Below are positions 1 to 41,949 of a stretch of 41,949 bases of DNA, in pieces. The translations under genes and the position numbers were made by a program. Within the stretch, counting starts at the first letter, position 1. The number at the start of each line of letters is the position of its first letter. This DNA comes from a virus (lineage: Duplodnaviria > Heunggongvirae > Uroviricota > Caudoviricetes). The notes beneath the pieces were generated by a model, which saw only the letters and a program-made list of their open reading frames with translations, made no database searches and was not told the origin of the DNA. Location of the stretch: positions 1-41,949 of IMG/VR virus record IMGVR_UViG_2558860473_000005, one strand, 5' to 3'.

Positions 1-1248
1 ATGGCACTGAATATTCCATTCAGAAATGCGTACTATCGTTTTGCATCCAGTTACTCATTTCTCTTTTTTATTTCCTGGTCGCTGTGGTGGTCGTTATACG
101 CTATTTGGCTGAAAGGACATCTAGGGTTGACAGGGACGGAATTAGGTACACTTTATTCGGTCAACCAGTTTACCAGCATTCTATTTATGATGTTCTACGG
201 CATCGTTCAGGATAAACTCGGTCTGAAGAAACCGCTCATCTGGTGTATGAGTTTCATCCTGGTCTTGACCGGACCGTTTATGATTTACGTTTATGAACCG
301 TTACTGCAAAGCAATTTTTCTGTAGGTCTAATTCTGGGGGCGCTATTTTTTGGCTTGGGGTATCTGGCGGGATGCGGTTTGCTTGATAGCTTCACCGAAA
401 AAATGGCGCGAAATTTTCATTTCGAATATGGAACAGCGCGCGCCTGGGGATCTTTTGGCTATGCTATTGGCGCGTTCTTTGCCGGCATATTTTTTAGTAT
501 CAGTCCCCATATCAACTTCTGGTTGGTCTCGCTATTTGGCGCTGTATTTATGATGATCAACATGCGTTTTAAAGATAAGGATCACCAGTGCGTAGCGGCA
601 GATGCGGGAGGGGTAAAAAAAGAGGATTTTATCGCAGTTTTCAAGGATCGAAACTTCTGGGTTTTCGTCATATTTATTGTGGGGACGTGGTCTTTCTATA
701 ACATTTTTGATCAACAACTTTTTCCTGTCTTTTATTCAGGTTTATTCGAATCACACGATGTAGGAACGCGCCTGTATGGTTATCTCAACTCATTCCAGGT
801 GGTACTCGAAGCGCTGTGCATGGCGATTATTCCTTTCTTTGTGAATCGGGTAGGGCCAAAAAATGCATTACTTATCGGAGTTGTGATTATGGCGTTGCGT
901 ATCCTTTCCTGCGCGCTGTTCGTTAACCCCTGGATTATTTCATTAGTGAAGTTGTTACATGCCATTGAGGTTCCACTTTGTGTCATATCCGTCTTCAAAT
1001 ACAGCGTGGCAAACTTTGATAAGCGCCTGTCGTCGACGATCTTTCTGATTGGTTTTCAAATTGCCAGTTCGCTTGGGATTGTGCTGCTTTCAACGCCGAC
1101 TGGGATACTCTTTGACCACGCAGGCTACCAGACAGTTTTCTTCGCAATTTCGGGTATTGTCTGCCTGATGTTGCTATTTGGCATTTTCTTCTTGAGTAAA
1201 AAACGCGAGCAAATAGTTATGGAAACGCCTGTACCTTCAGCAATATAG
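1..1248 (+). CDS. cscB: LacY-family sucrose:H+ symporter (CscB-like), 415 aa
   Basis: Full-length ORF from window position 1; strongly hydrophobic multi-TM protein whose sequence I recall as E. coli CscB sucrose permease; host gene outside the prophage. Confidence 0.85.
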   Translation: MALNIPFRNAYYRFASSYSFLFFISWSLWWSLYAIWLKGHLGLTGTELGTLYSVNQFTSILFMMFYGIVQDKLGLKKPLIWCMSFILVLTGPFMIYVYEPLLQSNFSVGLILGALFFGLGYLAGCGLLDSFTEKMARNFHFEYGTARAWGSFGYAIGAFFAGIFFSISPHINFWLVSLFGAVFMMINMRFKDKDHQCVAADAGGVKKEDFIAVFKDRNFWVFVIFIVGTWSFYNIFDQQLFPVFYSGLFESHDVGTRLYGYLNSFQVVLEALCMAIIPFFVNRVGPKNALLIGVVIMALRILSCALFVNPWIISLVKLLHAIEVPLCVISVFKYSVANFDKRLSSTIFLIGFQIASSLGIVLLSTPTGILFDHAGYQTVFFAISGIVCLMLLFGIFFLSKKREQIVMETPVPSAI

Positions 1249-1260
1249 ACGTAAACTTTT

Positions 1261-1298
1261 TCCGGTTGTTGTCGATAGCTCTATATCCCTCAACCGGA
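1261..1298 (+). terminator. Inverted repeat downstream of cscB (TCCGGTTG ... CAACCGGA), possible transcription stop
   Basis: 8-bp perfect inverted repeat with a 22-nt loop, 13 bp after the cscB stop; no clean U-run, so weak. Confidence 0.3.
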
Positions 1299-1689
1299 AA
1301 ATAATAATAGTAAAATGCTTAGCCCTGCTAATAATCGCCTAATCCAAACGCCTCATTCATGTTCTGGTACAGTCGCTCAAATGTACTTCAGATGCGCGGT
1401 TCGCTGATTTCCAGGACATTGTCGTCATTCAGTGACCTGTCCCGTGTATCACGGTCCTGCGAATTCATCAAGGAATGCATTGCGGAGTGAAGTATCGAGT
1501 CACGCCATATTTCGCTATCAGGATTCTGTGTGATGGTTACATCGCCCGGCCCAGGGCTGTTTAGTCATCAGCGCTTTCTGACAGTGCTGAGATTTCAACC
1601 TGTTGCAGTAAAAATGAGTAGATATAAGGCAAGTGTGCTGCCAAACCCATCTTTTACGGGGTGAAGGTAGATTTCGTTTGAAGGGTATC

Positions 1690-1704
1690 TGGTGTCCCCT
1701 GCAG
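1690..1704 (-). other. 15-nt copy of the tRNA-Arg (argW) 3' end incl. CCA (TGGTGTCCCCTGCAG on + strand); putative prophage attachment core (distal junction)
   Basis: Matches the reverse complement of the argW 3' terminus as I recall it; sits between the host cscB side and the excisionase gene. Confidence 0.55.
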
Positions 1705-1777
1705 ACATCTACTTGAGGCAGCAGGGGATTGATTGGAATGGTGTTTTTTAGATGTGAAAAATATTTTACCCGCTATT

Positions 1778-1978
1778 TTACCCATTGGCGCGGCTTAAGA
1801 GCTTATTTTTGAATTCACAATGGTCACGATATAACCATCTTGCTCGCCCGTGGATAACTTTGGCTTTTGGCAGGTCTCCGGACTTAATCCGGTCATAGAT
1901 GAAGGTCTTACCGAAGCCAGTATCGGCCATGATGAATTTCAAATCAACCAGGGAATCAGGCTGTAGTTCGTGTTGCAT
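1778..1978 (-). CDS. torI: AlpA-family excisionase / recombination directionality factor (TorI-like), 66 aa
   Basis: Sequence MQHELQPDSLVDLKFIMADTGFGKTFIYDRIKSGDLP... recalled as TorI/AlpA family; lies just inside the att fragment, at the opposite prophage end from int. Confidence 0.8.
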   Translation of the reverse strand: MQHELQPDSLVDLKFIMADTGFGKTFIYDRIKSGDLPKAKVIHGRARWLYRDHCEFKNKLLSRANG

Positions 1979-1997
1979 GAGTGCTATCTCCGAATAG

Positions 1998-2013
1998 GGA
2001 ATCGAACCTGCAA
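1998..2013 (-). other. Second tRNA-Arg fragment (T-arm region, GGAATCGAACCTGCAA), not a complete tRNA
   Basis: 16-nt match to the reverse complement of the argW T-arm; flanking sequence is not tRNA-like. Confidence 0.5.
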
Positions 2014-2020
2014 ATCAGGC

Positions 2021-2043
2021 AATAAAAAACCGCATTGATGCGG
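2021..2043 (-). terminator. Rho-independent terminator at the end of the leftward early operon
   Basis: Hairpin CCGCAT-loop-ATGCGG followed by a U-run on the minus strand, just downstream of the 2103 stop. Confidence 0.5.
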
Positions 2044-2102
2044 CGATGGTAGGTCTGGATATCTTGAGAAATGAACTGGCCTCATCGAGTGTGAGGCTGT
2101 GG

Positions 2103-3798: not shown

Positions 3799-5049
3799 TC
3801 ACTCTCCTTTGATGCGAATGCCAGCGGCGCGGATTGCATCGATGACTTCAGAAACTTTGTATGCCATTACCGTTTGGTAATCATCGTGAAAATCTGTTCG
3901 ATGAAGCATGCTGCTACGTTCCGGGAGCAGTATTTCCCGCGCTTCCAGTTCAGCAATCCGCTTCTCTGCTGCTTCCAGCTCATCCAGCAGCGCGTTATCT
4001 TCATCCTCTCTCAACACCACTGTGTCGAAGCTTTCGGCCTGCTTTTTGATTTTTGCAATCAGCGCCTGTTTGTTGATGTTGCTCATTTGGCGGACTCCTG
4101 TGCTCCAAGTTTTGCCCCATACTTCAAGGCTGTTATGCGAAATCAGCGCTTCGCGAACGCATGGCCTGTAGTAGTGATGGAAAGCGAAGGTCAGGCCGAG
4201 TTTTGTCGGGCGATCGTGTTTGCCAAGCAATCCCAGGCGAATACAGATAGTCGTTGCCGTGTAGCCAGAGTGATAGCCAGCAGCACGCTTCATAACTGTT
4301 TCTGCCAGAATGGTGCGGAAATCAGTGCGCCCGAAATTGGTACCTTCGAAAGCGGCGTTAACCACTTCGTCTGTAAGATGTGAATCATCAACTATGCTCA
4401 TACCGCTTCCCCCCTGACGAAGCTGGGCGGCGAACTCGTCGCATACGTGCGTTAAAGAGCAAATCTGGATAGCAGGATGCTCGCGCAACAATTCAACACC
4501 CTGCGCCCGCACTTCAGCCAGGAAGGCGTCGGTGGCTGGGTGCTCTGTCTGGCTATGCATTGCCCATTCAGATAAGTACTCGAAGCAACGGCGAAACTCC
4601 TGCCAATCACTGCACATGTTTAGGTTTCCGCCTTTACACTCGAACTGGTAATTCTCTAAACGGTCTGCAAACGCTCTGCCATTCTCTATGGCACCAAGTG
4701 GAGTTTCAGACTTCAGCCAAGCATTCTCCGCAGCCAGCGCCGCGAGATTAGTCTCAAGCTCTGCAATTCGACACATAGCATCAATATTTGTGTCCTCCAG
4801 GCGCTTAATTTCACCAAGCAGCTCCAGTGCAACCTTTGGGTTGAACGCGGCAACATGACGAGCGTTGTTCTCTGCATTTTTCTGTCCATCAAAGCCGGTC
4901 CATTTGATAACGTCTTCACATCGTTCATCACCGGGCGTGTGCACCGCATAAGTACCAGTATCCGTCGAAATAAATGCGACCCATTCGTCTGGTGTTGCCT
5001 TTTCTGCCGCCTCACGCAGTACCTGATAGTCAATTGTCATTCTCGCCAT
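3799..5049 (-). CDS. Ea22-like (ead/Ea22 family) early-region protein, 416 aa
   Basis: N-terminal IDYQVLREAAEKATPDEW motif typical of Ea22-like proteins; coiled-coil-rich. Confidence 0.7.
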   Translation of the reverse strand: MARMTIDYQVLREAAEKATPDEWVAFISTDTGTYAVHTPGDERCEDVIKWTGFDGQKNAENNARHVAAFNPKVALELLGEIKRLEDTNIDAMCRIAELETNLAALAAENAWLKSETPLGAIENGRAFADRLENYQFECKGGNLNMCSDWQEFRRCFEYLSEWAMHSQTEHPATDAFLAEVRAQGVELLREHPAIQICSLTHVCDEFAAQLRQGGSGMSIVDDSHLTDEVVNAAFEGTNFGRTDFRTILAETVMKRAAGYHSGYTATTICIRLGLLGKHDRPTKLGLTFAFHHYYRPCVREALISHNSLEVWGKTWSTGVRQMSNINKQALIAKIKKQAESFDTVVLREDEDNALLDELEAAEKRIAELEAREILLPERSSMLHRTDFHDDYQTVMAYKVSEVIDAIRAAGIRIKGE

Positions 5050-11689: not shown

Positions 11690-12637
11690 ATGAGCAATAC
11701 AGCAAAAATCTACGATTTCAGCGCCGCACACGAGCGCAGGAGCAACAGGATGGAGAACCAGAAAACTGGTTACATTCCGTTGTACCGGAGCATTCTGAAA
11801 CAGTCATGGGCGAAAGATGTTTATCTTCGCACCCTGTGGGAAAACCTTCTCCTGAATGCCGCCAGAAAGCCATACAAAGCGAATTTCAAAGGTCATGAAT
11901 GGCATCTGCAACCCGGTCAACTGGTTGTGACAGCAGCTGATTTAGGTCTTCAGTTATGCGACAGACATGGCAAGCCAGCAAGCCGTGATCAGGTTGAGCG
12001 GATGCTTCAGGTTTTTGTGAAAGAGGGGATGATCTCCATTGATGGAGAGAAGCAAAAAGGTCGTGTGATAACCATCACAAATTACCATGAATATGCTCAA
12101 AAAATGGACAATTTACCCGCACATGAAGCCGCACAAACAACCGCACATGATGCCGCACATGACGAAGACAGTAATGGCGCGGCTTTCAGCGCACATGCCG
12201 CACATGAAAGCGCACATGAAGCCGCACAAACAACCGCACATCATGAACAAGAAGGTATTAACAAGAATATAAATAATACCCCCCTACCCCCCAATGGGGG
12301 AGGCGATGGGCAGGTTAAACCTGAACGTCGCAAGGCAGAACGAATCGACTACGAATCCTTCCTGAACGCCTACAACACCGAAGTCGGTGACAGACTGCCA
12401 CACGCTGTTGCGGTCAACGAGAAACGCAAACGCCGCCTGAAGAAAATCATCCCACAACTGAAAACGCCAAACGTGGACGGTTTCAGAGCGTATGTCAGGG
12501 CGTTTGTGCATCAGGCTAAGCCGTTTTACTTCGGAGACAACGACACGGGCTGGACGGCAGATTTTGATTACCTGTTGAGGGAAGATTCGTTAACGGGAGT
12601 ACGGGAAGGGAAGTTTGCAGACAGGGGGATTGCATGA
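11690..12637 (+). CDS. Replication initiator (O-like / P22 gp18-like replisome organiser), 315 aa
   Basis: N-terminal O-like DNA-binding domain; internal [10 protein letters not shown] repeat encoded by the iteron array; position between cII and the helicase. Confidence 0.7.
12117..12245 (+). repeat. Iteron-like direct repeats inside the O-like gene (putative origin), followed by an AT-rich stretch and a GC-rich palindrome
   Basis: 31-bp perfect direct repeat CGCACATGAAGCCGCACAAACAACCGCACAT at about 12118 and 12211 plus at least 7 copies of the CGCACATG core; AT-rich about 12246-12282; CCCCCAATGGGGG palindrome about 12290. Confidence 0.5.
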
Positions 12638-37632: not shown

Positions 37633-39441
37633 ATGACAGATTCAATAAATGCCAATGTTGTAGTGAGCATGCCATCGCAACTCTTCACTATGGCTCGTTC
37701 TTTTAAAGCCGTAGCCAATGGCAAAATTTATATCGGTAAAATTGACACTGACCCGGTAAATCCTGAAAACCAGATTCAGGTTTATGTAGAGAACGAAGAC
37801 GGCTCTCACGTTCCTGTTTCTCAACCAATCATCATTAACGCTGCTGGTTACCCAGTATATAACGGACAGATTGCCAAGTTTGTAACCGTGCAAGGCCATT
37901 CTATGGCTGTTTATGATGCGTATGGTGCACAGCAGTTTTATTTTCCTAATGTGCTGAAGTATGACCCTGATCAGTTTGGTCCAGACTTCAAAGAGCAGTT
38001 ATCTCAATCAGGGGAATACATTAATGATGATTCAAAAGGTGATGCATTAATTGGCGTAAGACAGCCCGTTGCCGGGTCGGTAGCTATCACACAGCATGAT
38101 AAAAACGCACAAATAATCAACTTAAAAGATTTTGGTGCTAAGTGCGATGGTGTAACTGATGACACAGTGGCAATTCAGGCTGCTGTAGCTGCTGCGCATA
38201 CTGGTGTCCGTATAGTTCAACCTGCAGGGGTTTGCCTTACATCTCAGCCGTTGTCATTCACTAGTCCTGCATTTTGGTATGGAGATGATGGCGCTCGCAT
38301 TAAGCTCATTAGTGGCAGTCATGACTATGTTATGGAAATTGATCTTCGCGGGCCTAGTGGTTCGTTCTGGGGTTATGGGTCACATATTGAAAACATTATC
38401 TTTGATGGTGGTGGTCACGCAAAAGATGGCCTTTCATTGCGTGGTGTTATCGGAGGTATATTCAAAAATATTCGTGGGACAAATATATCAAGGACCGCTA
38501 TTCATGAATGGTGGACCCAACTTTGCCACTATGAAAATATTCAATGCAGTAATAATATTGAAGCATTCCAAACAACCCCTATTCACGGAATCTTATCTGA
38601 TTGTGAGTTTGGAACTGGTAATGATCGTGGGTCTTCTGCAAATACTTACATGAATACCACTATTGAACATACCTCTGGTAGTGGGATTTGTGGGGTGTTT
38701 ATGTCTAATTGTACATTTATAAATGGCACATCAGAAGGTAACGATATTGGCATTGAGTTTGGTCACGCTACTGATGATAGAAACCAATCAGTTGGGAATT
38801 CAGTTATTGGCATGGATCTTGAAGTTAATTCTTTAACTGATGTGTTATTACATAAAACAACATATGCAAATGACTTTATTGGTCTAAAAGCTGGTTATTC
38901 ATCTCCAGCCATTCAGGTGCAAGGCTCATATGCTAATAGCTTTATTGGTGGAGTAAGCAGTGGTATAGATTTTGACTCATCATCGCATGATAATAAAGTA
39001 ATAGGTATGAATCTTTTAGGCAACGATTCTATCATCGTAGATAACGGGTTAAGAAATTCATATGAGAATATTTTCAATATTTCATCTGGAGCTAAAAAAG
39101 AAAGCACTAACCCTTATCCATCGCGTAGCAACAATATAATTTCATCAAATGGTACTGTGCAAATTAACCCATTTTTATCATCATACTGTGTTGTGTCGGC
39201 TACTGGTTCACCAATTAATGTTACGTCTGTAGCAAAAAAATTAGACGGTGCGACTATTGATATGACTATTCATAACATTTCTGGATCTGATGAATTAATA
39301 GTAAACTGGTCTTCTGACTTCAGAGTTTCTGGATGGACAAGCCCGGCAACAGGGCGCCACCGGTCTATAAGATTTGCTTATGATGCAAACTACGGATACT
39401 GGACTGCTATATCTATGAGTCAGTCAGATATTCTGAACTAA
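37633..39441 (+). CDS. Tailspike protein: P22-type N-terminal head-binding domain plus divergent beta-helix receptor-binding domain, 602 aa
   Basis: First ~115 residues match the P22/Sf6 tailspike N-terminus by recall; the rest has repetitive G/N/S/T-rich strands typical of parallel beta-helix depolymerases. Confidence 0.85.
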
Positions 39442-39453
39442 GATTTATGCTGT

Positions 39454-39476
39454 GGGGGGGATTATTCCCCCTGTTT
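39454..39476 (+). terminator. Terminator between the convergent tailspike and acyltransferase genes
   Basis: Hairpin GGGGGG-attatt-CCCCC followed by TGTTTTACTTT; overlaps the acyltransferase stop. Confidence 0.55.
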
Positions 39477-40595
39477 TACTTTCCTCATATCCACCAGTTT
39501 ACCAGGGATGCTCATAAATATCTTATTTCTAATCTTGTTAGTAAGTATCACTTCAATATATTTATGCGAAAGAAATGCAATAAAAATTGATAAAATTAGT
39601 AAAATAGTGAACCCGTATACATTGTGCATCACACCTGGATTATTAGCCTCAACCTGCCATGAAATGTAACTACCTACCTGGTTATGAAGCAGATACCATG
39701 AGAAGGAAATATCACCAAGCATTACAAAAAATGATGGTGTAATTTTTGTTATAACTTCATCATTTATTACGAACGCCACTAAGAGGAAGTATGCAATGAT
39801 GCCTGTCTTTAAATTATAACCTTCAATAGAACCATTGAAGACTGCAGTCATAAAAATTAATGCCGATATAGCAGTGAATGAGTATTTTAATCTATTGCTC
39901 CATGATTTTGCTGAACGCACTGTGTGCCCAGCAAGGATGCCTAAAGCAAATTCAATTACTATCGGATTTGTTAAAAAGCTAAGTTCTGGAGTACCAGTTT
40001 TATAACCTGAAGTGGATAATGTTACATTTCCAGTCAACATATATCCTACAAGGATAGTTGTCATTATCCATACGACTATGCCAGAGGTTCTTTTATTGAA
40101 TAATAAACAAAGTGCGAATACAAGATAGAAGTATAATTCATAGTTAAGCGTCCATCTAATAACAAATATACCACCAGCATCAACATACAAAGGAGGGTAC
40201 GCATCCGTAAAAGGAGAGAATGTTAAAGCACTCAGTAAGTTTTCCACCTTAGCTTGGTCAACGAAGATTCCAACTTCCCATGTAAAGTAGAAAGCTGTAA
40301 AGAGAGCAATAAAATATGTAGGAAAAATCCTTGTGAGTCTTTCTACGGAAAAGAATATAGCAGACTTTATACCAGATGGCTTACGGCTAGTGATATGCAT
40401 CATAATAAAACCACTTATTACGAAGAACAAATCAACACCAGCAGAACCCCAAGATAAATATTTATTAGGGATAGTTAAATCTCCATACAATGGTGATAAC
40501 CAAAATCTGTAGTGAAAAAGAACTACAGACAATGCAGCTAATCCTCTAAGTATCTGTACTGAGCTAAGTTTATTGTTCATTATTAAACCGATCAC
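39462..40595 (-). CDS. Acyltransferase family 3 (OafA/Oac-like) integral membrane O-acetyltransferase, 377 aa
   Basis: Multi-TM protein with acyltransferase-3-like N-terminal motif (ILRGLAALSVVLFHY); very AT-rich by eye; between tailspike and int, as oac is in Sf6. Confidence 0.75.
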   Translation of the reverse strand: MIGLIMNNKLSSVQILRGLAALSVVLFHYRFWLSPLYGDLTIPNKYLSWGSAGVDLFFVISGFIMMHITSRKPSGIKSAIFFSVERLTRIFPTYFIALFTAFYFTWEVGIFVDQAKVENLLSALTFSPFTDAYPPLYVDAGGIFVIRWTLNYELYFYLVFALCLLFNKRTSGIVVWIMTTILVGYMLTGNVTLSTSGYKTGTPELSFLTNPIVIEFALGILAGHTVRSAKSWSNRLKYSFTAISALIFMTAVFNGSIEGYNLKTGIIAYFLLVAFVINDEVITKITPSFFVMLGDISFSWYLLHNQVGSYISWQVEANNPGVMHNVYGFTILLILSIFIAFLSHKYIEVILTNKIRNKIFMSIPGKLVDMRKVKQGE

Positions 40596-40791: not shown

Positions 40792-41949
40792 TCACTCCAC
40801 CTTTTCATCAAGCCAGTCCGCCCACCATTGCATCATTTCTCTGCGCTTATCGAGATACTGAGCATGGTTGTAAATCCCGCGCACAGAACCGCCGTTGGCA
40901 TGTGCCAGCTGCACTTCAATAGCGTCAGCAGGCCATTCGTGCTCGTTCATAATCGTGCTGAATTCATGCCTGAATCCGTGACCGCTTTCCAGACCTTCAT
41001 AGCCGATTTGTTTGATCACAAGCAATACCGCGTTCTCGCAGATTGGCTTCTTCTTATCGTTGCGCCCGGCAAAAACAAACTCTGAGACTGGTTTGGTGAT
41101 TGAGCTTAGCGTAGTGAGAAGTTCAACTACCTGGTCTGACATAGGAACCACATGAATTTTGCGTCCCTTCATCACGCTGGCGTCGATGGTGATAATCCTG
41201 TTTTCAAAATCGACGTTCTTCCATAGCATAGAACGAAGCTCTTTCGTTCTTAGGGCTGTGTAGCGTAAAACTTTGGTCGCAATGAGCGATACGATACTTC
41301 CTGAAAATGTTGCCAGTGCTTTGTTGAATGCCGGGATCTGGTCTGCAGGAAGAAACGGGAAGTTCTTCTTGCGGTATCCTTTCATGGCGTCAGCAAGGTC
41401 AGGTGCCGGGTTATATTTAGCCCTGCCGGTGACAATAGCGTAACGGAAAACCTCGCCGCATCTTCTGCGGGCTTTATTGGCTCGTTCCATTGCACCGCGA
41501 TCTTCAAATCTGCGGATTACTTCCAGCAGTTGCATTGGCTCAATATCCTGAATTTCAAGGCCGCCGATGATAGGTAAAATGTCGTCATCAAACATTTTTG
41601 CAAGTTCAGTCGCATACCCTACTGACCATACTTGCTTCTTGTGCTCGTACCATTCCTTGTAAATCGCACTAAAGGAATTGTTGTTAGACGAAGCCTTTTT
41701 CGCCTTTACCGGATCGATGCCAACCGAGATGTCTTTCCTCGCGGTCCATGCCTTATCCCTTGCCTCCTGCAAAGTCATAAGCGGATATTTTCCTACGGTC
41801 AGTATTTTTTCCTTACCGTCAATCTTGTAGCGAAGCTGCCATACCTTTTTCCCGGATACAGGGACATAAAGGTACAGGCCATTACCATCGAGAAGGCGGT
41901 ATGGTTTTTCTTTCGGCTTTGCTGCTTCAATCTGCTTAACGGTGAGCAT
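40792..41949 (-). CDS. intS: Tyrosine integrase (P4-type phage integrase family; IntS/Sf6 Int-like), 385 aa
   Basis: N-terminal SAM-like domain and C-terminal catalytic domain with conserved R...HGFRH...Y residues; start codon at the last 3 nt of the window. Confidence 0.85.
   Translation of the reverse strand: MLTVKQIEAAKPKEKPYRLLDGNGLYLYVPVSGKKVWQLRYKIDGKEKILTVGKYPLMTLQEARDKAWTARKDISVGIDPVKAKKASSNNNSFSAIYKEWYEHKKQVWSVGYATELAKMFDDDILPIIGGLEIQDIEPMQLLEVIRRFEDRGAMERANKARRRCGEVFRYAIVTGRAKYNPAPDLADAMKGYRKKNFPFLPADQIPAFNKALATFSGSIVSLIATKVLRYTALRTKELRSMLWKNVDFENRIITIDASVMKGRKIHVVPMSDQVVELLTTLSSITKPVSEFVFAGRNDKKKPICENAVLLVIKQIGYEGLESGHGFRHEFSTIMNEHEWPADAIEVQLAHANGGSVRGIYNHAQYLDKRREMMQWWADWLDEKVE

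Follow-up and report, generated by a model that had tools for sequence, protein, structure and literature searches.

In the integration module of KplE1, HK620 and Sf6, the integrase gene and the excisionase gene are located at opposite ends of the prophage, with attP between them in the phage (PMC2951348, PMC3509656, PMC8787464). A core of 16 nucleotides, CTGCAGGGGACACCAT, has been reported for this IntS/TorI module, as has the TAAA motif of its arm-type sites (PMC2951348). The excisionase TorI binds five sites in attL, I1 to I5, with the cores GTTCG, GATCG and GTCCG, and represses the promoter PintS through the promoter-proximal ones (PMC2951348). According to the authors of the KplE1 work, the excision decision rests on the expression of the excisionase gene, and an understanding of its control requires a study of the expression of the recombination directionality factor (RDF; PMC2951348). 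Here, the torI end of such a prophage was analyzed in a stretch of 41,949 nucleotides (Caudoviricetes; IMG/VR record IMGVR_UViG_2558860473_000005, positions 1 to 41,949), referred to as the window below, in which two short strings identical to adjoining parts of the tRNA gene argW are located on either side of torI. The best explanation overall, to which we assign a probability of about 60%, is that one of them is the known attR core and the other a selected, phage-borne element of the torI leader, likely a control site.

The string next to the chromosomal flank, TGGTGTCCCCTGCAG (piece 1, positions 1690 to 1704), and the string upstream of torI, GGAATCGAACCTGCAA (piece 2, positions 1998 to 2013), each occur only once in the window, even if two mismatches are allowed. 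They are the reverse complements of argW positions 61 to 75 and 46 to 61, respectively, and thus abut on the gene with an overlap of one nucleotide at position 61, whereas 293 bp separate them in the window. Both positions had been given exactly in the initial annotation, which had described the strings as contiguous in the intact tRNA and separated here by about 290 bp with a torI-like gene; the gene is a torI of 66 codons. The argW sequence assumed there was also correct: the 3′ end of K-12 argW (locus L003, 510-584) reads ...AATTGCAGGTTCGATTCCTGCAGGGGACACCA and is identical in the argW of a close relative (L165). Since the next-longest argW matches in the 42-kb window have only 10–11 nucleotides, the matches of 15 and 16 nucleotides are not due to chance. 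A further argW piece or a second core above this chance length, i.e., longer than 11 nucleotides, was not found in the window.

Piece 1 is the ordinary attR core of an IntS/TorI-type (KplE1/HK620/Sf6) P22-like prophage in argW and is already known. It comprises 15 of the 16 nucleotides of the module core CTGCAGGGGACACCA(T), the 16th base being a G from the chromosomal side. In the annotation of K-12 the 15-nucleotide attR piece is the pseudogene pawZ, and piece 1 is exactly such a classical duplication of a tRNA 3′ end at a prophage junction (attL/attR, pawZ). The window leads from cscB through the P22-like prophage to the ATG of intS, where it stops, and therefore the intact argW is not visible in it. 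In the close relative BS15R-A, whose junction is 98.6% identical to that of the window, the order is yfdC-argW-intS-prophage-torI-core-cscB with argW 161 bp upstream of intS, so that the tRNA gene is found there beyond the integrase, as the initial annotation had expected. In K-12, argW and a core copy are likewise located upstream of intS. A csc regulon adjoining the argW variable region has been reported (PMC3032704), and the flank at 1249–1689 is common to many csc-type strains.

The TorI-type excisionase gene lies directly inside the core-bearing junction, and intS was found at the opposite end of the prophage. In the window, as in each of the 17 lineages examined, 74 nucleotides separate the torI stop codon from the heptamer TGCAGGG of the core. 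Between torI and the core the P-arm repeats GGGTAAAA are present (1762–1783), and the two GGGTAAA motifs are nearly invariant across 15 lineages. Because of these conserved arm-type repeats, the 74-nucleotide stretch is regarded as a working P arm and not as an insert. In addition, a perfect inverted repeat of 8 nucleotides, TCCCCTGC and GCAGGGGA, was observed at 1695–1702 and 1721–1728, with 18 nucleotides between the arms. The core reads CAGGGA and its P-arm copy TCCCTG in Cedecea and Edwardsiella, so the two copies covary, which suggests functional pairing or a second core-type site.

In attP, TGCAGGG is located between the inverted pair GATGTC/GACACC, and attR junctions with unusual chromosomal B′ flanks have only TGCAGGG(G) in common. 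For these two reasons, strand exchange probably takes place in TGCAGGG. At the attR junctions of loci L130, L133, L140 and L148 the tRNA-like sequence ends after TGCAGGGG(ACA) and is followed by unrelated DNA, as expected from integration at secondary sites sharing only the overlap region. The attR of the window reads CACCAGAT past the tRNA end (1688–1690), with CACCAG in place of the CACCAT of attP and of K-12 attR. The identity with the phage core therefore covers 15 nucleotides, and the crossover was on the tRNA side of that base. The chromosomal flank is different as well (csc vs. dsdC). The torI next to the core (98–100% identical), intS at the opposite end and the core CTGCAGGGGACACCA are shared with the KplE1/HK620/Sf6 module, and HK620, Sf6 and K-12 KplE1 also have the P-arm repeats and the 16-mer before torI. 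The window is thus a member of the IntS/TorI module with nothing essential different.

Piece 2 differs from a classical tRNA duplication, as it is present in free phage, is located 293 bp from the core, corresponds to the T-loop and not to the 3′ end, and has no core behind it. It is phage DNA in the torI leader and a partial look-alike of the argW T-arm. HK620 and Sf6, whose genomes come from virions, contain the core, the torI homologue (hkaC and gene 18, respectively, at the same place) and ...CCTGATTTGCAGGTTCGATTCCCTATTCGGAGATAGCACTCATG at identical spacing, as does K-12 KplE1. The piece ends 19 nucleotides before the torI start codon, as in HK620 and Sf6, and 120+ viral contigs contain both strings 270–300 nucleotides apart. 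HK022, 434, mEp043 and Stx phages, which carry other integration modules, share the DNA to the right up to the terminator hairpin and the first TTGC and then diverge, which places piece 2 at the very edge of the integration module. The terminator at 2023–2044 is common to HK022 and 434 and is annotated as a terminator there, and the Sf6 annotation at the spot of piece 2 includes a ‘boundary sequence’. The published in vitro excision substrate was a 135-bp attR with its inner primer in the torI 3′ end; piece 2 therefore lies outside the minimal in vitro substrate.

These observations bear on the two origins that the initial annotation had considered. Its first alternative, a short core of 15–16 nucleotides with a phage-borne second fragment, was essentially right, as the fragment is present in free HK620 and Sf6. 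Its second alternative was that two successive integrations or recombinations at argW left nested remnants, with the second tRNA fragment remaining in the junction. argW is indeed a hot spot, and several loci have tandem islands behind the core. Yet the fragment travels with the phage and is found inside free phage genomes, an Int-mediated event would leave a core beside the T-arm piece where there is none, and neither a second core nor another argW piece above 11 nucleotides nor, among the open reading frames (ORFs) near the junction in the window, a second integrase was found. Nested remnants are hardly conceivable on this evidence.

The description as a ‘split copy’ turned out to be misleading. 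In such a scenario one ancestral attP would have contained about 31 nucleotides of the argW 3′ end and would have been split by a torI cassette, with the upstream piece as a passive scar. The exact abutment of the identity blocks (46–61 and 61–75) in E. coli-type modules speaks for it. However, this abutment is confined to the E. coli lineage, since only there position 61 is a C (GTC) beside the core. In most lineages, TTCGAT followed by GTA, GTT or GTC is found to the left of TGCAGGG, in the same register as the TTCGAT+TCC of the tRNA, and E. coli has a further decayed form of it, GTAGAT+GTC. The core copy thus has its own T-loop remnant. In Serratia fonticola and Pantoea BAV3049, the upstream piece runs on like the tRNA as GATTCCTG (CCTG) and overlaps the core by CTG. 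The pieces are therefore not complementary and non-overlapping, and the core side does not lack a T-loop. Furthermore, a functional P arm with arm repeats and a constant spacing of 74 nucleotides is located between the pieces, so that the ancestor would have been without a P arm, and a scar would not remain invariant at 10 of 11 positions while four-fold degenerate sites are only 47% identical. A severed half of the core copy is accordingly rejected, and the scar scenario as a whole appears quite improbable.

The conservation of piece 2 was analyzed in TorI-family loci gathered by protein similarity (one genome per species plus assemblies). In a search for TorI relatives with a different tRNA target, the TorI family turned out to be tight, with at least 56% identity, and nearly every readable attR junction had an argW-type core. 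Ten lineages bear the element: E. coli, Enterobacter, Atlantibacter, Citrobacter, Cedecea, Hafnia, Edwardsiella, Pantoea stewartii, Pantoea BAV3049 and Serratia. The compared lineages outside E. coli have a torI that is 69–83% identical to that of the window at the DNA level. In the block GGTTCGATT(C/T)C, 10 of the 11 columns are invariant in the ten lineages, a count that is inflated because the lineages were recognized by the 9-mer GGTTCGATT, which the check for intermediate forms given below mitigates but does not remove. The mean pairwise identity is 0.97 in the 11-mer, compared to 0.47 at four-fold degenerate torI sites and 0.565 at third codon positions, and it is 0.41 in the six bases before the 11-mer and 0.53 in the eleven after it. 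Assuming the same freedom as at third codon positions (10 of 66 invariant), 10 invariant sites among 11 adjacent ones would arise by chance with a probability of about 5e-8 by our own arithmetic. In its conservation the element equals the known arm-type integrase sites, compared to an identity of only 0.61 for the whole P arm. The distance from the first G of the element to the ATG is 29–30 nucleotides in nine of the ten lineages and 36 nucleotides in Serratia (alignment A3).

Not all 16 bases of the argW match take part in this conservation. Only GGTTCGATTCC, in most cases with a preceding CA, is common to the lineages. The TTG at the 5′ end of the 16-mer is specific for E. coli, other lineages having ACAGG, CCAGG, ATAGG or GCCGG, and the G of the 16-mer is polymorphic within the E. 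coli type (TTTACAGG variants). Directly after this shared sequence a C is present in eight of the ten lineages, compared to the T of the tRNA. About 11–13 of the 16 matching bases thus seem to be constrained. Among E. coli-type copies, a partly unbiased sample, four singleton variants occur within the 11-mer, and the common polymorphisms lie just outside it. Additional torI leaders in viral contigs keep the element, including those of distant xis genes beginning with MRELRDDSL. A scan of viral contigs with a variable first base gave, outside torI leaders, real tRNAs, att fragments or chance coding matches.

Klebsiella, Cronobacter, Mixta, Rahnella, Tatumella, Arsenophonus, Proteus, Erwinia and several Pantoea have unrelated leaders, and no near match to the element was found in the leaders of element-less lineages among the protein-sampled loci. 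The element is either perfect or absent there, with no decayed intermediates, as selection together with mosaic replacement would produce. A neutral hitch-hiker whose apparent conservation stems from recent spread or sampling would fit the near identity of E. coli-type modules to one another and the many lineages that do without the element. It is nonetheless very improbable, as the same 11-mer is kept at 17–31% difference in torI DNA and about 50% in the flanks, and as decayed intermediates are missing. Conversion against the host argW was also considered as a cause of the invariance and was rejected: the identity extends over only 11–16 nucleotides, and the flanks consistently differ from those of the tRNA (CCC vs. 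CCT, and ACAGG or CCAGG vs. GCAGG). The comparisons indicate that the 11-mer is kept across genera by purifying selection, and piece 2 is very probably a phage-borne, selected and functional element rather than a scar. The initial annotation had taken the second fragment to be phage-borne extended homology; the phage-borne part stood, whereas passive homology does not fit a block that is among the most conserved non-coding parts of the module.

Some further loci stood out in this survey. In L239 (IMGVR_UViG_2901296437_000004, about 12249–12290) the element is tandemly duplicated before a torI homologue, CAGGTTCGATTCCCGT CAGGTTCGGTTCCCAT. The leader of L136 (Dryocola sp. BD626, just upstream of 10001), TTGCCTGGAGGAAAGCATG, is otherwise of the Atlantibacter type and shows an apparent deletion of 27 nucleotides including the element between CTGG repeats. 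Finally, L133 and L149, contigs labelled as metagenome-assembled genomes of Actinomycetes and Parachlamydiaceae, contain enterobacterial torI modules with an Atlantibacter- or Citrobacter-type leader, so that the labels are probably due to binning contamination.

The position of the element in the leader raises the question of an action at the RNA level. In the torI mRNA, UUCG could pair with YGGA at the Shine-Dalgarno sequence and limit translation, or the element could mimic a T-loop for a tRNA-binding factor. The UUCG:YGGA pairing is possible in 86% of the cells of the alignment, with only C or T in the partner column; the distance to the ATG is nearly fixed, and the sequence fits GUUCNANNC. 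A hairpin with a loop of 8 nucleotides is possible in some lineages (73.5% paired; matched by 9 of 500 shuffles) but is weakly supported. On the other hand, the T stem in the register of the tRNA is not kept (pairing in 51% of the cells, with only the two G-C pairs beside the loop persisting), and the fold is no better than that of shuffled sequences (z = -0.97). The 4-bp helix with two wobble pairs is marginal, and the pairing would account for UUCG, leaving the other seven invariant bases unexplained. An action as RNA is therefore considered unlikely. A T-arm mimic in the strict sense was rejected, since a 5-bp stem closing a 7-nucleotide loop and kept by compensatory changes was not found; in the whole window neither a tRNA, by ARAGORN or Rfam, nor any other Rfam family was detected.

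Another explanation comes from existing annotations. In HK620 and Sf6 this region is annotated as a cII-activated promoter of the pI type, so that the 16-mer would provide the second cII half-site with its TTGC and the promoter spacer with its remaining bases. In lambda-type phages, the homologous place directly behind the shared terminator is occupied by TTGCGTGTAATTGC, and the lambda pI promoter, the cII-dependent promoter of the integrase, resembles the region in its location after a tL3-like terminator and before xis and in the shared TTGC. The half-sites, however, are spaced by 5 and not by 6 nucleotides and are not conserved: about 40% of E. coli-type copies, K-12 KplE1 among them, have TTAC in place of the first TTGC, and the second TTGC varies within E. 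coli and is missing from all other lineages. The first repeat is located at 2019–2022 of the window and at about 10457–10460 of L003 in K-12. A conserved TTGC-N6-TTGC flanking a -35 region was thus not found, no sigma-70 consensus promoter was found at the annotated pI, and the conserved block is another sequence, GGTTCGATTCC, and not the TTGC repeats. A role as part of pI is improbable on these grounds.

The 11-bp invariance, the lack of a conserved RNA fold, the near-fixed position and the restriction to this module make a binding site for a module-encoded protein likely. Reportedly, in work of Menouni et al. from 2013, torI is expressed by read-through, which is silenced by Rho. We tentatively propose, as a specific mechanism with somewhat less than even odds, that the T-loop copy is read by TorI and/or IntS and controls the expression of torI. 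The element would act as a double-stranded DNA site bound by one or both of these proteins, and the bound protein would lie across the read-through path between the terminator and the torI start, tuning excisionase synthesis. In the case of IntS, the element would represent its chromosomal half-site, which makes up the left part of attB. In this way the same proteins that occupy attL and attB would, through their occupancy, exert feedback on the synthesis of the excisionase.

For TorI, this proposal is based on a comparison with the sites I1–I5 (Panis et al. 2010, PMC2951348). The pentamer G(T/A)(T/C)CG of TorI operators is present in the element as GTTCG with a CAG-type 5′ flank. The E. coli site I4 (TGGTTCGCTTC), which together with I5 is known to repress the promoter when bound by TorI (PMC2951348), matches the element at 9 of 10 positions, and I3 has the flank GATTT-CAG in common with it. 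In several lineages a second TorI-type core (GTTCGG, GTCCGG or GATCGG) is located 12 nucleotides downstream and overlaps the ribosome-binding site. The element differs from I1–I5 in being situated in P-side DNA before torI and not in the P′ arm, in being single and not part of a cooperative array, in the purine after GTTCG, and in its far stronger conservation, and TorI binding here is a candidate function. For IntS, GGTTCGATTCC (argW 51–61) corresponds to the DNA directly left of the predicted strand-exchange region in attB and would mimic a half-site. The conserved block ends exactly where the attB overlap TGCAGGG would begin, the overlap position being itself predicted. The torI leader can also be read as GATTCC + 7 nucleotides + GAGAT, which is similar to a pseudo-core.

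Besides the inflated invariance count, several points weigh against the control site and its proposed readers. About half of the sampled TorI lineages are without the element, and one has apparently lost it by a clean deletion, so it is dispensable. The attL fragment used in the published gel shifts included the argW T-arm, and only five TorI sites were reported, all in the P′ arm; this argues against the T-loop as a strong TorI site. The base after GTTCG is an A in the element and a pyrimidine in all mapped or orthologous TorI sites. Variation between lineages is seen in the TorI sites and in the phage-side core half-site but not in the element, and the known tolerance of neither TorI nor IntS explains an invariance over 11 nucleotides. 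In addition, repression would need to act on read-through transcription, since no sigma-70 consensus promoter was predicted there.

A comparable motif was found in the P4 family. The core architecture of P4 is alike (TTTGATGTT followed by TGAGTCC; GATGT(N)+TG..), and in P4 as well as in the P4-like elements in tandem after the argW core, (G)GTTCGAT or CTTCGATT is found immediately before int and is framed by inverted arm-type repeats. In contrast to the element of the window, which is located beside the excisionase gene, these motifs are located beside the integrase gene. P4 targets leuX, and its motif is apparently not an exact match to the T-loop of this target. P4-like integrase modules follow the attR core directly in tandem in L047, L111, L130, L140, L005, L021 and L153, each with (G)GTTCGAT or GAGTTCGA between inverted arm-type repeats before the int ATG. 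In L047, ATTGCTGGTTCGATT matches argW at 14 of 15 positions, and P4 itself has CTTCGATT at the same place (L338, about 3925–3945). A similar motif upstream of the P4 vis gene was looked for and not found.

The coordinates of all features are listed in Table 1. In addition, an ORF of 377 amino acids (39462–40595, minus strand) was observed between intS and an ORF of 602 amino acids (37633–39441, plus strand), at the position where Sf6 has its O-antigen acetylase gene.

Table 1. Features at the torI junction and at the opposite end of the window (positions refer to the window).
Feature	Position	Strand	Remark
cscB-like sucrose/oligosaccharide permease of the major facilitator superfamily (MFS), chromosomal flank gene	1..1248	+	ORF; BS15R-A annotation ‘oligosaccharide MFS transporter’ at the same place
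Bacterial flank B′ between cscB and core	1249..1689	.	Same flank after the core in many csc-type loci; without an argW-like piece
attR core CTGCAGGGGACACCA, argW 61-75, pawZ-type tRNA fragment	1690..1704	-
TGCAGGG, predicted strand-exchange (overlap) region	1697..1703	-	Deduced
GATGTC, predicted phage-side core-type half-site	1704..1709	-	With the 3 nucleotides before it, a decayed T-loop remnant
P-arm inverted copy TCCCCTGC of core segment GCAGGGGA	1721..1728	-	Perfect 8-nucleotide inverted repeat
Two direct GGGTAAAATA repeats, P-arm IntS arm-type sites, overlapping the torI stop codon	1762..1783	-
torI, excisionase/recombination directionality factor, 66 amino acids	1778..1978	-	98-100% identical to proteins named TorI
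torI Shine-Dalgarno sequence GGAG	1988..1991	-	GGAGAT nearly invariant in leader alignment A3
GGTTCGATTCC, T-loop look-alike, argW 51-61, candidate protein-binding control site	1998..2008	-
Full 16-nucleotide argW identity TTGCAGGTTCGATTCC	1998..2013	-	Outer TTGCA lineage-specific or partly conserved
TTGCCTGATTTGC, cII-binding site of the predicted pI promoter as annotated in HK620; mosaic joint with other lambdoid phages	2010..2022	-
Intrinsic terminator, tL3-like hairpin and T tract, directly upstream of the element	2023..2044	-
intS integrase, opposite prophage end, window stops at ATG	40792..41949	-	attL and argW beyond

The junction and the 15-base attR core are already known, and the conserved T-loop look-alike before torI is the new part, a variant within a known system. 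The available literature and database records describe the core of 16–17 nucleotides, the arm sites and the TorI sites of attL, and contain no T-arm-like piece before torI; a full-text literature search for the 11-mer gave nothing relevant. For the annotation of prophages this means that neither an integration scar nor a second att site can be taken for granted where a tRNA-like fragment is found near the end of a prophage. Should the element bind nothing, what is left is a known prophage junction and a conserved leader motif. Being under strong selection and identical to a tRNA T-loop, the element in the torI leader is a concrete candidate for the control of excision, which can be tested in HK620, Sf6 or KplE1. 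If the proposal is true, the operator would be the missing control point of RDF expression in phages with uncoupled int and xis.

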